Source: a virus (lineage: Duplodnaviria; Caudoviricetes). Taken from it: 64,000 nt of DNA. Positions 54,145 through 59,400 of the stretch are shown piece after piece. Under the pieces are notes generated by a model, which was given only the letters and a program-made list of their open reading frames with translations, had not been told where the DNA came from and searched no databases. The stretch is taken from positions 28,287-92,286 of IMG/VR virus record IMGVR_UViG_2929541355_000001. One strand, written 5' to 3'. How positions within the stretch are numbered: position 1 is the first letter of the stretch; every line of letters begins with the position of its first letter. The translations under genes were made by a program, and so were the position numbers.

Positions 54145-55578
54145 GTGCAGCACCGCATGCCGTCTTGTCAGCTTGAGCGCGCCCAGAAGGGCGATTCGCG
54201 GCAAAAGTCCGCCCCCGAACCCGGCACCCAGTGCCCCCCGATCGCCCCCGCGTGCCAATGGCTCACCACCACGGCCGGGCGCATCGCCCTCGACGGACAC
54301 TCCTGGATGACCGCCGTCCACTGGGCAGCAGACCCCAAGACCAAGCGCTACCTGCCGACCCGCACCCACGGCCCGCGCGCCATGAACGCCACCACCATCG
54401 TCATCGCGCAGGAGTGCGCCAACCTCCTGGAGTGCCGGCCCGGCATCGCCTACCTCGCGCGCAAAGCCCGCTGCTCCGAGCGGACCGTCGAATACCACCT
54501 CGACATGCTCCGCGAAGCCGGGCTCCTCGCGTACGCCAGCAAGGGCACACGCACCAGCGGCGGCCCGAACCAGGCGTCCGTGTACGAGCGGGTCATCCCC
54601 ACCGCGTTCGACGAGGCCCTCGGCATCCGCACCACGCAGCGCAACGACACCGCCCCCGCATACTCCCGCGTCCCCGTCGGCATCGCCGAGACGGGCAGGA
54701 AGCTCATCGGAAAGCTCGCGAAGAAGGCCTCCCGGAAGGTCCGTCGCCGCCGCCCGCGCACCCCGGTTATGGGCCGTAACCGTTGCACCCCAATGCAGGG
54801 TGGTACCTCAGCGCCTTCATCTACCGGTACTTCCACATCTCCCTCTGAGACAAGACTCGCCAGCGGGAGCAGCACTCACCCCACCCAGAAGAAGACGAAC
54901 CGCGGGCCGCAGAAGCTGAACAAGATCGGGCGCCGCTACCAGCTCGCCCGGGAGCTCATCACCAACGTGCCGTGGCTTGAGCGCGCTTCCGTACCCCGCA
55001 TCTCGTGGATTGCCCGGCACTGCGCCGACGACGGCTGGACATGGCGTGAGGTTCAGGCTGCTGCCGAGGAGCACAGCCCCATCGACCCGATGGACAGTCG
55101 CCGACCGTCCGGGCTCCTCGCCTACCGCCTCAAGGGCGTCCACCAGCTGTACGCCAAGCCCGCGGCCAGGGAGCAGATGGTGTTGGCGTGGCACGAGTCG
55201 ACCGCGCAGGAGCATTTCCGTCACTCCGGCTACGGCAAGGTCACCGAGCACGCCGCCCCCGACACTGTCGAAATCAGTGACGCTCAGGCAGCGTTCGGGG
55301 CCTCCATGCGCACGGGCAGCACTACCCGCCCCGCCAGCACCCGCGACGACGGCGATGAAGGGCTCATCCCGGTCGGAGACCTCGACCTGCACGCCCTCAG
55401 CGCGCACGAGATTGGCATCCACCAGGCCTGGGCCGCCGCCGACCCCACCTACGTTCGCTCGCTCCTGAACGAGATGGGCGACACCGCGACCCGGCAGCTC
55501 CTCACCAACCGCCTCGTCAACCAGGCCCTCGCCGCCCTGCGCATCACCACCACCCCGACCCTCGCCAACGCCTTCTGA
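54145..55578 (+). CDS. Putative replication initiator (winged-HTH)
   Basis: PGIAYLARKARCSERTVEYHLDMLREAGLL; upstream of DciA-like and parAB genes. Confidence 0.65.
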   Translation: MQHRMPSCQLERAQKGDSRQKSAPEPGTQCPPIAPACQWLTTTAGRIALDGHSWMTAVHWAADPKTKRYLPTRTHGPRAMNATTIVIAQECANLLECRPGIAYLARKARCSERTVEYHLDMLREAGLLAYASKGTRTSGGPNQASVYERVIPTAFDEALGIRTTQRNDTAPAYSRVPVGIAETGRKLIGKLAKKASRKVRRRRPRTPVMGRNRCTPMQGGTSAPSSTGTSTSPSETRLASGSSTHPTQKKTNRGPQKLNKIGRRYQLARELITNVPWLERASVPRISWIARHCADDGWTWREVQAAAEEHSPIDPMDSRRPSGLLAYRLKGVHQLYAKPAAREQMVLAWHESTAQEHFRHSGYGKVTEHAAPDTVEISDAQAAFGASMRTGSTTRPASTRDDGDEGLIPVGDLDLHALSAHEIGIHQAWAAADPTYVRSLLNEMGDTATRQLLTNRLVNQALAALRITTTPTLANAF

Positions 55579-55590
55579 TCGGAGACCACC

Positions 55591-55923
55591 ATGGTTGCCA
55601 GCATCGCCACCTACCAGTTCACCGAGACCGGTGTCCGCCTGCGCATCGACGATGAGACCGCCACCCTCGACGTGAGCGGCGACCCTGAGCACCCGAATCC
55701 GATCAGGGTCGCCGAGCTGAACATCAGCTACAGGACCACCACGACCCGCACCGGGGAATCGGTTGAGATGGCCACCGAGATTACGAACATTACCTACCTG
55801 CTGGACCACGCCGACTACCAGGTGGCCTACGTGCACCCCGACCACCTTCAGCAGTCGCAAGAATGGCCGGACTGGGTTGCCGAGCTTGTCGACCAGCACC
55901 GTCCCACCGAGGGAGTCCGGTGA
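55591..55923 (+). CDS. Hypothetical protein
   Basis: GGAG RBS; ends PDWVAELVDQHRP. Confidence 0.7.
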   Translation: MVASIATYQFTETGVRLRIDDETATLDVSGDPEHPNPIRVAELNISYRTTTTRTGESVEMATEITNITYLLDHADYQVAYVHPDHLQQSQEWPDWVAELVDQHRPTEGVR

Positions 55924-56696
55924 CCGCCGAAGCGTCCGGGCAGGACCTCGCCCGCCTCGCCCTCGCCCAGTACAAGGCCAGCACCAAGAACCAGCCCCGT
56001 CAGCCCCGTCAGTCCGCCCGGCGGCAGGTCCGGAGCGCCCGCACCGGTGACCGCCGCGAACCTTCAGGGCTCGGCAGCGTCCTCACCAAGCTCGCCGGCG
56101 ACCTCGGATGGCAGCCCGGCGTCCAAGGCGGCGACATCCTCGACCGGTGGGACGAACTGTGCCCCCAGTACGTCGACCGCATCCAGCCCGTCCACTACGA
56201 CCCCGAGCGCCGGGTCCTTGAACTCCGGCCCTGCTCCCCCGCCTACGCCGCCCAGCTCCGACTCCTCGGCGGGCAGCTCGCGAAGCAGATCAACGACAAG
56301 GTCGGGTCTGAGGTCGTGCGCGCCATCAAGCCCCTGCCGGTTGGTGCTGTGGCGTCCACGTCCCCGAGCCGGCCCGCGCCCACCGTGGCCCCGGACACAC
56401 CGGTCGACGCCCCGCTGAAGACCCGCGACACCGCATCCCCCGGCTACCAGGCCGCGCTCGCCGCGGTCCGGCCGAAGGTGGTCACCGAAGTCGACGCCCT
56501 GGTCGCGGCCGCCATCAACCGGCAGGCCCGCACCGCAGCCCGCGAACCCGAGACCGTGTTCGCCGACGCCGCGGCCGCCCTCGACGCACTCCACGCCGGT
56601 CAGGAACTCACCCGATCCGAAGAGGTCCGGCAGGCCGCGATCCGCCGCAAGCACGCCGGAGACCAGCCCGTACGGACCGCGTTCGACGTCGCTTGA
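55920..56696 (+). CDS. DciA/DUF721-family protein (helicase loader-like)
   Basis: DLARLAL...GW...RW.EL...L.L...SPAYAAQLRLL..QL...IN..VG...V..I. Confidence 0.8.
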   Translation: MTAEASGQDLARLALAQYKASTKNQPRQPRQSARRQVRSARTGDRREPSGLGSVLTKLAGDLGWQPGVQGGDILDRWDELCPQYVDRIQPVHYDPERRVLELRPCSPAYAAQLRLLGGQLAKQINDKVGSEVVRAIKPLPVGAVASTSPSRPAPTVAPDTPVDAPLKTRDTASPGYQAALAAVRPKVVTEVDALVAAAINRQARTAAREPETVFADAAAALDALHAGQELTRSEEVRQAAIRRKHAGDQPVRTAFDVA

Positions 56697-56732
56697 ACAA
56701 GGCGCCCGCAGTCGAGCGATGACGGTCAGACG

Positions 56733-56825
56733 TATACCGCGGTATATGCGCTCTGGAGTGACCGCCCAGCCATCCTTACAAGCCAGCCTTGCTGACGGCC
56801 TATCGGCGTATACCGCGGTATACGC
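56733..56825. promoter_or_regulatory. parS-like palindromes TATACCGCGGTATA x2 upstream of parA
   Basis: 56733-56746 and perfect 20-mer GCGTATACCGCGGTATACGC at 56806-56825. Confidence 0.8.
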
Positions 56826-56935
56826 GCGACGCGCTGAACAACCAGGGTGGTGCAAATGTCCGGCTCCGGTATCTGCAATGCTGTCCCGGTCCGAGTACCG
56901 AGAACCCCTCGGGAAGCATACGGAAACGGAGCATC

Positions 56936-57598
56936 ATGGCCTCCTCCATCCTCGTCGTATCGACCGACCCACAGGGATCAACGATCTGGTGGGCCGATCG
57001 GATCGGCGACAACCTCCCCTTCGACTTCGCGACCGCCCACGAGGACCCCGACAGCCTGGCGGAACTCAAGAACCTGGGCGCCGAGATCCACGTCATCGCG
57101 AACCAGAAGGGTGGCGTCGGTAAGACGACCACCACGGTCAACCTGGCAGCAGTGACCCACGATGTCCTCGGGCACAGCGAGCAGCGCCAGCACATCTTCA
57201 TCGACACGCCAGGCAGCCTAGAGAACGAGCACATCCTGGCCGCAGCCCTCGACATCGCCGATGACGTGTTGGTCCCGCTCCCCCCGGAGCCGTTGGCCTT
57301 CGATCCGACCGCGCGAACGATCGAGAAGGTCATCGCCCCCCGCGGACTGCCGTACAAGGTCGTCGTCAACGCCTGGGACCCGCGCGACGGCAAGGCCGAT
57401 CGTGACGAGACCATCGAGTACATCGACGCCATGGGCTGGCCGCGCGCCAACACCGTCATCCGCCGCTACAAGATTCACACCCGCGCAGCGGCTGAGGGCA
57501 AGGTCGTCACCCAGTACGCCGACAACGGCACCACCCTCCGGGCGCGCGAGGACTACTTCCGGCTGGCGCTGGAACTCGGGTACGGAGGCCGCCGCTGA
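56936..57598 (+). CDS. parA: ParA-family ATPase with rearranged motif order
   Basis: NQKGGVGKTT, STDPQGS, IFIDTPG; coupled to parB. Confidence 0.9.
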   Translation: MASSILVVSTDPQGSTIWWADRIGDNLPFDFATAHEDPDSLAELKNLGAEIHVIANQKGGVGKTTTTVNLAAVTHDVLGHSEQRQHIFIDTPGSLENEHILAAALDIADDVLVPLPPEPLAFDPTARTIEKVIAPRGLPYKVVVNAWDPRDGKADRDETIEYIDAMGWPRANTVIRRYKIHTRAAAEGKVVTQYADNGTTLRAREDYFRLALELGYGGRR

Positions 57599-58773
57599 TG
57601 GCTGGCAAGCGACTCAACCTCGCCTCCCTCGCCGGCCAGACGGTGGAGAACACGCCCGGCAGTAGCAAGCCCACCCTGGTCCACGTTGCACCCGACCAGG
57701 TGGCGCCCACTCCCCTGAACCCTCGCCAGGACTTCAACCCGGCCCAACTCGTCGAACTCGGCAACAGCATGGCCACCGGGCAACTCCAGCCGTGCGTCGG
57801 TATCTCCCGGGCCCGCTACATCAAGCTGTTCCCCGAGCACGAGGAGCAGCTGCCTGACTGTCGGATCGTCATGGCCGCCGGCGAGCGCCGCTGGAAGGCC
57901 GCCCTTGAGGTCGGACTGCCCCTGCTCGACGTGCATGTCCGCGAGGACATCGCCGAGTCCAGAGTCCGCTTCCTTGCAGCCGTTCTCACAGAGAACGTGG
58001 AGCGGTCGAACTTTAACTTCATTGAGGAAGCCCGCGGTCTCAAGCTGATGCTGGACATGACCGACGGAAATCAGACCCAGGCCGCAGAGGGTCTGCAGAA
58101 GTCCAAGCAGTGGTTCAGTCAGCGCATCGGACTGCTGCGGCTCTCCGAGGAGATGCAGGCTCTTGTCGTCTCCGGGAAGCTCAAGGCATTTCGGGAAATG
58201 CGCGCCTACTCGGCTATGCCACCCGCTGAACAGTTCGCCGCATGGCAAGCCGACCGCGCGGAAGCGGAGCGCATGAAAGCCATCAGGGCTGCCCGCACCA
58301 AGGCGGCCGTCGCGGGGACAGTGCCGACCGAAAAGCCGTCCGAGGGAGGCGATGCGTATACCGCGGTATACACAGAGCCTGGTGGTGTGCAGACGTCAGC
58401 ACCTCAGGAAGCGATGTCGGGGCCTACGGCCGTCGAACCGCAGCCGGCGGCAGCCCAGCCCGCGGGGGTGTCAGCGAACACTCAGAGACCAGCGGTACAA
58501 GCACCTACCCCCGACTCGGGTAGCGGGCTCACGCAGGATGCGGCCAGCCCGCAGTCACCTCTTCCCGAGCCCCGCCACGAGAAGGAGTCTGGCGAGACCT
58601 CAGACGGGCCCGCCGCCAGCGAGCCGACACCCGTCAAGATGCCATGGCATGACGGTGCCGCCGTGGCGCGGCTGGCATTCCTGAAGATGCCAAAGGAGCA
58701 ACTGCCGCTGATGCTGGCAAAGCTCCAACAGATGCTGGACCAGGCCGAGCGCACAGACTCAACGAAGGTCTGA
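57598..58773 (+). CDS. parB: ParB-family partition protein
   Basis: NPRQDF, GQLQP, AGERRWKAA, ENVER, HTH. Confidence 0.92.
   Translation: MAGKRLNLASLAGQTVENTPGSSKPTLVHVAPDQVAPTPLNPRQDFNPAQLVELGNSMATGQLQPCVGISRARYIKLFPEHEEQLPDCRIVMAAGERRWKAALEVGLPLLDVHVREDIAESRVRFLAAVLTENVERSNFNFIEEARGLKLMLDMTDGNQTQAAEGLQKSKQWFSQRIGLLRLSEEMQALVVSGKLKAFREMRAYSAMPPAEQFAAWQADRAEAERMKAIRAARTKAAVAGTVPTEKPSEGGDAYTAVYTEPGGVQTSAPQEAMSGPTAVEPQPAAAQPAGVSANTQRPAVQAPTPDSGSGLTQDAASPQSPLPEPRHEKESGETSDGPAASEPTPVKMPWHDGAAVARLAFLKMPKEQLPLMLAKLQQMLDQAERTDSTKV
58356..58371. promoter_or_regulatory. parS-like palindrome inside parB
   Basis: GTATACCGCGGTATAC. Confidence 0.75.
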
Positions 58774-59400
58774 CGGGAAGACTGCGGCCCCGCCTCTCGC
58801 CTGACGGTGGGGGAGCGGGGCCGCTTTCGTGTGCGCGGTCGGGATTCGGTCGGGTTTCTGCACCTTGCCGGGGTTTTTCGGTCACACGAACGAATGACAT
58901 CCCGCCCCGCCCCTTCCCCGTACGGTCCGCGCGGACTTGGTTGGGAGTGCCGTCACCCTGCCGGGGGTGAACGGCCGCAGGGGTAGAGGTCTCCCGCACG
59001 GGATCGCAGCACCTCTGCCCCTGCCCACCACACCCACCACGCACTTCGCCCGAACCTCTCCCACCACCCCACCCTCCACGGCTACAATCACCGTTATCTG
59101 GCGGGCATGCCCCGTGAGGTCTCGGGCCCCCAACGGGTCGTGGGTGTTGTCGGCAAAACTCCGCCCCCAAACCGTCGGGGGCTTCCTCATGCCCCGGCCC
59201 AGGCCCGCCCGCGGGTGGCCGGGACCCTACCCCCTGCCGGGTCACAAGGGCATCAAAACTGAGCCACCGCTTACCGACGTGACCGAAACGGTGGGACAGT
59301 GACAGTCCCCCGGTGGGCAACCGGCAGCCGAACCGGGGGAGGCGTGAGGACTCGCAGCGTCACGTCGCCCTTCCCGATGCCGGAGGAGCGGAGACGCCCC

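Follow-up and report, generated by a model that had tools for sequence, protein, structure and literature searches.

The locus described here lies in a 64,000-nucleotide stretch of a viral genome (the window), which comprises bases 28287-92286 of the 92,286-bp IMG/VR virus record IMGVR_UViG_2929541355_000001 (Duplodnaviria; Caudoviricetes). The record has direct terminal repeats, a CheckV completeness estimate of 100% and one copy of parA. The parA gene, whose product (P0001) is the subject of this study, is followed by parB (P0002), and the parA stop codon TGA (57596-57598) shares its A with the parB ATG (57598), a 1-base overlap. The ParA product has all of the nucleotide-binding motifs expected of its family, but Walker A' stands ahead of Walker A. 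The original prediction, made from the sequence alone, had located ILVVSTDPQGS at residues 5-15, IHVIANQKGGVGKTT at 51-65 and HIFIDTPG at 86-93, and had described the reading frame, the ribosome-binding site and the coupling to parB as intact. Translation of 56936-57598 placed all three motifs at exactly those residues, within codons 1-93 (56936-57214), and the ribosome-binding site and gene overlap were as described (Table 1).

The A' motif VVSTDPQ occupies residues 7-13, the deviant Walker A motif KGGVGKT residues 58-64 and the Walker B motif DTPG residues 90-93. The deviant Walker A has the KGGxxGK[ST] form with its signature N-terminal lysine (K58-G-G-V-G-K63-T64), the A' strand ends in D-P-Q/N and the Walker B strand ends in D. 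However, the linear order Walker A, A', Walker B is not that of P0001, in which A' comes at residue 11, Walker A at 58 and Walker B at 90. For comparison with relatives, the P-loop unit was named block A, the A' unit block B and the remainder of the chain block C. In block-wise BLAST comparisons the parA product has the order B-A-C, whereas canonical relatives have the order A-B-C, with block A at the N-terminus and block B following the P-loop block. ParA-family profiles match P0001 in two stretches rather than one. The Pfam scores exceed the cut-offs for both AAA_31 (39.5 bits, cut-off 27) and CbiA (34.7, cut-off 25.4), and in each case the strongest stretch spans residues 51-73 only.

Table 1. 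Features of the parAB locus and its neighbourhood (positions are those of the window).
Feature	Position	Strand	Description
Probable replication initiator	54145..55578	+	PHROG replication-initiation families, E 6e-7 to 8e-6; position as pZL12.20c
DciA (DUF721)-family gene	55863..56696	+	Pfam PF05258, 41.8 bits (cut-off 24); between initiator-like gene and parA
Palindrome TATACCGCGGTATA, copy 1	56733..56746		Upstream of parA; candidate parS/operator
Palindrome TATACCGCGGTATA, copy 2	56809..56822		Upstream of parA; perfect over 20 bp (56806-56825)
Ribosome-binding site GGAG	56928..56931	+	4 nt ahead of the parA ATG; read from the sequence
parA (P0001)	56936..57598	+	663 nt, 220 codons plus stop; permuted ParA ATPase; open reading frame and translation
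Block B, residues 1-48	56936..57079	+	A' strand VVSTDPQ (56954-56974), helix 15-26, strand 30-33 (LPFDF), helix 38-47
Block A, residues 49-85	57080..57190	+	Strand 50-54, deviant Walker A K58GGVGKT64 (57107-57127), helix 63-78, linker 79-85
Block C, residues 86-220	57191..57595	+	Walker B strand HIFIDTPG (57191-57214), remaining ParA core; collinear with all relatives
parB (P0002)	57598..58773	+	391 codons; ParB N-terminal and helix-turn-helix domains, then a long Pro/Ala-rich tail
Palindrome TATACCGCGGTATA, copy 3	58357..58370		Within the 3' half of parB; perfect over 16 bp

When the blocks were searched separately by BLAST against six canonical relatives, block B (1-48) matched canonical residues 37-83 (E 1.6e-10 to 1.3e-19, identity 42-62%), block A (49-85) matched residues 2-37 (E 3.7e-11 to 2.2e-14, identity 69-81%) and block C (86-220) matched residues 85-236 (E 1.7e-53 to 1.4e-73, identity 51-71%). 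This bears out the proposed exchange of residues 1-48 and 49-84, with the second boundary here set at 85. The best match of P0001 among PDB sequences, 3cwq_A (phmmer, E 4.1e-11), gives the same picture, with query 53-73 on chain residues 4-24 and query 80-201 on 64-183; query 5-30 fills the gap at chain residues 31-54, a middle piece that is weak and not significant alone. Translation, phmmer and block-wise BLAST agree that A' precedes Walker A, and an A'-like strand or canonical DPQ following Walker A, which would contradict the swap, was found neither in the P0001 sequence nor in its AlphaFold2 model.

Canonical-order sisters of P0001 (45-62% identity) occur on Pseudonocardia, Rhodococcus and Mycobacterium plasmids and among metagenome proteins. 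The homologues on Pseudonocardia pBCI2-1, Rhodococcus pGD02.2.1 and M. avium pS2a are 44-48% identical to P0001, and their genes begin about 37 residues upstream of the point at which the P0001 N-terminus aligns. In translation these plasmid sisters read M..HVIANQKGGVGKTT...LAAV...SP-VLGVSTDPQ...LPFDF...-HIFVDTPG, which is the canonical order. The canonical actinobacterial plasmid ParAs (pBCI2-1 WP_060577442, pS2a WP_023870444, P0127 and P0320) are of the same subfamily as P0001, with which they share the signature VS.DPQ.S..WA.R...LPF, the HVIANQKGGVGKTT P-loop block, a C-terminal LALELGYGG and a parB gene directly downstream. They differ from P0001 in having the order A-B-C and in being about 15-20 residues longer, because their A-to-B linker is long.

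A circular permutation of the whole chain, in which the termini are joined and the chain is cut elsewhere, does not yield the order of P0001, in which C stays last and A and B are exchanged. The block order is non-cyclic for the whole chain, and the swap equals a circular permutation confined to the N-terminal A-B part. A natural permutation other than a simple circular one had been predicted, and the observations agree with it: two adjacent N-terminal blocks are swapped, the C-terminal 135 residues are in place, and the order is shared among relatives, under selection and confidently folded in the model.

In a collection of 5.8 billion proteins, 119 of the 120 best homologues of P0001 have DPQ, then KGGxGK[ST], then D[TS]PG, all intact, and the lone exception is a 166-residue entry labelled partial by its source. 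The spacing in these 119 B-A-C proteins is 45-55 residues from DPQ to KGG and 31-37 from KGG to DTPG. All 12 homologues of the first alignment have the same order at 64-89% identity to P0001, and they carry the labels Streptomyces, Kitasatospora, Actinomadura, Actinocorallia, Actinoallomurus, Embleya, Yinghuangia and Leifsonia. The top 30 plasmid records in PLSDB, among them the complete S. ambofaciens plasmid pSAM1, match parA as a single collinear piece covering 95-100% of the query, and the ParA of pZL12 (pZL12.17c) is 64% identical to P0001 over 99% of its length. Among loci from IMG/VR the order B-A-C holds for 8 of 12, and among metagenome loci for 17 of 80. When public contigs were aligned to the window, no joint within 56700-57700 was found in any run. 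One run (X1), which may be the source of the record itself, has a contig identical across 56700-57700; contigs of two others (X23, 15,975 nt; X4, 2,384 nt) each cross both block junctions at about 90% identity, and a contig of a fourth (X2, 985 nt) covers 56806-57380 and bridges both junctions. Contigs of four runs therefore span the junctions without a joint, and the misassembly that would have undone the prediction was not found. The rearrangement is real and is a conserved family trait, not an assembly error.

Compared with four plasmid orthologues (87-98% protein identity), parA has a ratio of nonsynonymous to synonymous substitution rates (dN/dS) of 0.034-0.112 at a dS of 0.51-0.71; by block the ratio is 0-0.09 for B, 0.08-0.17 for A and 0.03-0.10 for C. 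The comparison with pZL12 was saturated and is left out of these figures. Purifying selection acts on every block of parA. Across 60 B-A-C sequences (mean column identity 66%), the invariant residues are D11, P12, Q13, S15 and W19 in block B, N56, Q57, K58, G59, G60, G62, K63, T64 and T65 in block A, and D90, P92 and G93 in block C. In metagenome runs from soil and rhizosphere, contig depth climbs 10- to 60-fold over the Walker A stretch (57074-57141) because many unrelated ParA genes match about 50 bases there at 85% or more; the rise reflects motif conservation, not copy number.

An AlphaFold2 model of P0001 built from a 60-sequence alignment has a mean predicted local distance difference test score (pLDDT) of 93.0 and a predicted template modelling score (pTM) of 0.91, and the ten-residue pLDDT means across residues 1-50 are 86-93. 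Its secondary structure runs strand 5-9, helix 15-26, strand 30-33, helix 38-47, strand 50-54, P-loop, helix 63-78 and strand 86-90, followed by the usual alternation. Helix 63-78 leads through a 7-residue linker directly into the Walker B strand 86-90. In VIA-align, ParF (4dzz_A) matches with Z 18.2 and a root-mean-square deviation (rmsd) of 2.3 over 162 aligned residues, model 49-220 on chain 1-206; 3cwq follows at Z 16.3, and Soj, MinD and MipZ at Z 14-16. The ParA fold is thus recovered over model residues 49-220. The ParF match starts at the P-loop strand (residue 49) and leaves about 44 ParF residues of the A' region without a partner, as a swap predicts, because residues 1-48 would replace ParF residues of about 28-75. 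The model is therefore consistent with residues 1-48 occupying the canonical A' position in cis. In the Leipe-Koonin-Aravind classification the strand that carries Walker B reportedly sits in the sheet flanked by the A' and P-loop strands; if that order holds, one adjacent and one skip-one connection would be traded for a like pair, which would explain why the swap is tolerated.

Among 1.84 billion cluster representatives searched exhaustively with HMMER, 614 relatives reached E<=1e-3, and most of the best 150 of these match in three stretches and are canonical. When 360 proteins were classified by motif order, 146 were A-B-C, 131 were B-A-C (one of them, P0199, a false call on inspection) and 76 were incomplete and unclassifiable. 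The other seven (P0126, P0129, P0147, P0224, P0275, P0278 and P0286; 217-238 residues, from JGI, ENA and Logan sources) have the order B-C-A, with the P-loop block at the C-terminus. They are metagenomic and mutually divergent (30-65% identical to P0126) and keep all motifs. The A' block comes first, the chain runs via Walker B to the LALELG end, and PR[IV]HVIANQKGGVGKTT...LAAV forms the last 30 or so residues; block A of P0001 accordingly matches residues 196-229 of these proteins. By their sequences they are true circular permutants of the whole chain. The junction from C to A (..GPR-IHVIANQ) resembles the canonical N-terminus (MAPRVH..), and the chain now opens with a segment (..SSQSP-VLVV) similar to the linker between A and B in canonical proteins (..DHSP-VLVV); both traces are as expected if tandem genes had fused in frame and the product had then been trimmed. 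A model of P0126 from 7 sequences only has a pLDDT of 80.5 and a pTM of 0.84, and ParF aligns with it at Z 16.1 and rmsd 2.9 over 173 residues, model 4-191 on chain 28-206. Block B of P0126, homologous to that of P0001, thus aligns to ParF from residue 28. No B-C-A gene was found in PLSDB, where all matches listed came in 2 pieces, nor among the matches listed from assembled genome contigs, where the only family match (L010) is B-A-C, nor at the 12 IMG/VR or the 80 metagenome loci. Taken together, it is likely that one actinobacterial plasmid and phage-plasmid ParA subfamily exists in three topologies (A-B-C, B-A-C and B-C-A) that are 45-80% identical block-wise, that the P-loop unit is a relocatable cassette in a working SIMIBI ATPase, and that, within the reach of the literature search, these are the first permuted ParA/MinD-class ATPases to be described.

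A tree of the subfamily started from 274 complete proteins, of which 117 remained after clustering (identity threshold 70% for A-B-C, 80% for B-A-C); P0199, 31 distant A-B-C rows and the long-branched P0188 were then left out. The three blocks were aligned separately to give 84 rows by 209 columns, and eight distant A-B-C rows served as the root. The B-A-C rows nest inside A-B-C, and the 32 main ones form one side of a branch with a support of 73.7 in the Shimodaira-Hasegawa-like approximate likelihood-ratio test (SH-aLRT). All 33 B-A-C rows as one clade were not rejected by the approximately unbiased (AU) test (p 0.538, the constrained tree being 2.6 log-likelihood units better). An independent origin of the order through the divergent B-A-C protein P0141, which groups with two long-branched A-B-C rows (SH-aLRT 96), is not claimed, given that AU value and the fact that its nearest relatives are B-A-C. 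The seven B-C-A proteins fall in three places, and one clade was not rejected for them either (AU p 0.267, log-likelihood 17.9 lower). A tree of block C alone was poorly resolved, with 59 of 114 branches open, and was not used. The trees are compatible with a single origin of each permuted form; on these sequences, at least two permutation events are required and no more are established. The B-A-C order is derived from a canonical A-B-C ancestor, and the simplest route would be tandem duplication of the A-B part (A-B-A-B-C) with loss of the first A and the second B. The rearrangement probably occurred once; a large clade of ParAs from plasmids and phage-plasmids of Streptomyces, Kitasatospora, Actinomadura, Embleya and their relatives would since have inherited it. 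Block A DNA (blastn) and eight canonical N-termini (tblastn) were searched against 56600-56935 for a relic of the ancestral P-loop; a candidate reading LNNQGG in frame (about 56834-56851) was rejected, since the searches yielded no match better than E 0.012-0.26 in a tiny search space.

The surroundings of parA are those of a partition cassette, as judged from the domain scores of the adjacent ParB, the gene overlap and the repeated candidate centromere sites. The parB product scores above the cut-offs for Pfam ParB_N (29.7, cut-off 26.3), HTH_ParB (34.7, cut-off 22.6) and TIGR00180 (76.5, cut-off 58.45). The palindrome TATACCGCGGTATA has 3 exact copies in the 64 kb, compared with 0.01 expected by chance. 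It lies at matching positions, upstream of parA and in the 3' half of parB, at four of four close plasmid loci including pSAM1 and at five of eight B-A-C viral loci; it was absent from pZL12 and from three canonical-order loci. These palindromes are likely candidates for parS or operator sites. Between the helix-turn-helix region and a short conserved C-terminal segment, ParB residues of about 235-350 (58300-58650) form a long Pro/Ala/Ser-rich stretch, which is probably disordered and at the start of which the third palindrome sits. Because TATACCGCGGTATA is a palindrome, the peptide YTAVY arises wherever it is translated in that frame, on either strand. A promoter and terminator scan of 56600-59000 found none, and no RNA data set was among the runs listed as containing window sequence.

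The gene order (initiator-like gene, small gene, DciA-family gene, parA, parB) matches pZL12.20c-16c and pSAM1, and synteny around parAB extends to the Streptomyces plasmid-phage pZL12 (90,435 bp) and to plasmid pSAM1 (89,658 bp). Homologues of the DciA-family gene are annotated as Tra3-like in pZL12 and as DUF721 in pSAM1; the gene had no PHROG match, and the DciA family is related to helicase-operator proteins. Related IMG/VR loci lie on virus contigs of 61-93 kb and many homologues on contigs of 82-97 kb, which suggests that a family of plasmid-phages of about 90 kb is widespread. The matching neighbourhood and the virus contigs of 61-93 kb mark the element as a pZL12-like Streptomyces plasmid-phage, with parAB as its putative partition module. 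Canonical-order ParAs of the same subfamily (L098-L101 in IMG/VR) are found on virus contigs of 61-92 kb, which overlaps the B-A-C size range and suggests that both topologies serve similar-sized replicons.

P0001 most likely serves a pZL12-like plasmid-phage as a rewired but intact ParA in ordinary plasmid-prophage partition, a reading to which we assign a probability of roughly 0.85. The block order, its conservation, selection, the confident fold and the ParB partner are shown by the analysis; ATPase and partition activity are inferred. In the proposed mechanism the P-loop unit has come to stand after the A' unit and ahead of the Walker B strand, and the fold and active site would be ordinary, with two loop connections alone rewired. 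ParA would bind ATP, form a nucleotide-sandwich dimer and bind DNA, and the translationally coupled ParB would stimulate it. ParB probably binds the three GTATACCGCGGTATAC-type palindromes, which would then act as parS.

Several observations count against this account of the function and its origin. P0001 scores 72.4 bits in 2 stretches (the best being residues 79-199 on profile 72-192) against a cut-off of 180 for the NCBIfam equivalog NF041546 'ParA family partition ATPase' and is not a member; the canonical sister P0127 also falls short (89.9 bits in 1 stretch, 7-205 on profile 3-198), as does P0126 (84.1 in 2 stretches), and by these scores the whole actinobacterial subfamily falls outside the equivalog irrespective of block order. 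The top Foldseek matches, ParF and 3cwq, are moderate only (TM 0.64-0.68, rmsd 5.4), which is expected because a sequential aligner meets swapped blocks. The placement of block B draws on the compact and confident model, the matching strand-helix-strand-helix pattern and the B-C-A model, and not on a non-sequential superposition, and a linker of only 2 residues joins helix 38-47 to strand 50-54, which may put strain on packing in cis. The literature covered, to which pZL12's original description does not belong, gave no biochemical or genetic test of a B-A-C ParA. As for the origin, the single B-A-C clade is weakly supported (73.7) and its non-rejection in the AU test is no proof; no relic of an N-terminal P-loop was detectable in 56600-56935; and no two-P-loop intermediate (A-B-A-C or A-B-C-A) was found among the 360 proteins, which leaves the duplication route without a direct trace.

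Three other explanations of the locus were considered. An assembly or sequencing artefact that misordered two fragments of a canonical parA has in its favour that the window comes from a single virus record and that the only run with all of its words may be its own source. However, complete plasmids such as pSAM1, as well as pZL12, have this order, as do 119 of the 120 top homologues, which were drawn from NCBI, JGI, ENA and Logan; both junctions are crossed by contigs of three further runs; the divergence among these genes is mostly synonymous; and identities of 64-97% among the records exclude a common faulty template. An artefact is therefore hardly conceivable. It is also possible that the fold is completed in trans, with block B packing on the P-loop core of another subunit in an obligate oligomer such as a domain-swapped dimer or filament. 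The 2-residue connection and the sequential structural alignments, which leave residues 1-48 unplaced, could be taken this way, but AlphaFold2 yields one compact monomer (pTM 0.91, pLDDT 86-93 over residues 1-50) and the connection lengths are conserved in the 119 proteins, and completion in trans is considered improbable.

A real and conserved protein could also have ceased to be a conventional partition ATPase and act as a regulator or adaptor that binds nucleotide, its hydrolysis or dimer cycle altered by the rewiring. The P-loop unit region lies near the dimer interface in solved ParAs, and in P0001 new linkers of 2 and 7 residues flank that unit; in addition, Ser takes the place of the first acidic residue usual in A' (VVSTDPQ) and the score lies below the NCBIfam equivalog cut-off. 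However, Ser in A' is found throughout the subfamily, in the canonical sisters as well, and the signature lysine K58, the P-loop K63 and T64 and the Walker B D90 are invariant. The relatives keep a translationally coupled parB and conserved palindromes, and canonical and permuted forms fill the same slot in virus contigs of 82-93 kb. A regulator of this kind is therefore rated as unlikely, and partition by a rewired ParA is the preferred explanation.

Among known partition proteins, the top structural matches are ParF of plasmid TP228 (4dzz/4e07/5u1g) and the small Synechocystis ParA (3cwq), both small type-Ib-like ParAs. With these P0001 shares a length of about 200-220 residues, the lack of an N-terminal DNA-binding domain, a deviant Walker A, a Walker B, a DPQ-type A' motif followed by a Trp-containing helix and an adjacent gene for a centromere-binding partner. 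Identity is about 20-30%, and the order in ParF and 3cwq is Walker A, A', Walker B, whereas the A' block comes first in P0001. ParG, the partner of TP228 ParF, is a ribbon-helix-helix protein; the partner of P0001 is a helix-turn-helix protein of the ParB/Spo0J type. Judged by its motifs, modelled fold and partner, P0001 would work like a small ParF or type-Ib-style ParA. Closer still are the ParAs of pZL12 (pZL12.17c), pSLE1 and pSAM1, which have the order B-A-C at 64-90% identity and the same neighbourhood of initiator-like gene, small gene, DciA/Tra3-like gene, parA and parB. pZL12 is in the same size class as the element of the window (92,286 bp) and differs from it in lacking the TATACCGCGGTATA palindromes. 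In the available text of the pSLE1 paper the proteins are termed ParA and their motif order goes unremarked.

Permutation is known from other P-loop nucleoside triphosphatases (NTPases). In the circularly permuted GTPases (YlqF/RbgA, YjeQ/RsgA and YawG) the P-loop is no longer the first nucleotide-binding motif, and whole families conserve the arrangement. These proteins belong to the TRAFAC class and not to SIMIBI/ParA, their permutations are circular over the whole domain (G4-G5-G1-G2-G3), and to our knowledge they have no canonical sisters at about 50% identity.

According to the available text of PMC2422856, the bacterial tyrosine (BY) kinase CapAB can be superposed on MinD only once a peripheral C-terminal extension is circularly permuted, and that of PMC3863775 reports a natural non-circular permutation in the HK97 fold of the capsid protein of phage BPP-1. 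The partners compared in each of these two examples are only distantly related in sequence, and the segment displaced in CapAB is not the P-loop unit. In P0001, by contrast, the catalytic P-loop unit itself has moved, and the variants can be aligned block-wise at 45-80% identity. A full-text literature search found no description of a permuted ParA, pZL12's original description and supplementary files being outside its reach; in the available part of a preprint on ParA immunity, the 'permut' wording concerns FHA domains.

For partition biology the consequence is probably small, because nothing else about the cassette looks unusual. What is new is the chain topology, and the interest is chiefly for protein evolution, for folding and as a warning for annotation pipelines, since profile searches match these ParAs in two or three pieces and the proteins may look truncated, fused or misassembled. 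Natural permutations that shift an element of a catalytic core are rare and usually occur between proteins too distant to align, which leaves no way to retrace how the change came about. In this subfamily, close homologues of permuted and canonical order fill the same genetic slot in similar replicons. Rewired and canonical ParAs could be exchanged in plasmid stability assays, the junctions could be compared residue by residue, and the cost or benefit of the connectivity could be measured. If the reading of three topologies is true, this subfamily would be an unusually clean natural system for the limits that connectivity sets on the folding, dimerisation and evolution of P-loop NTPases.

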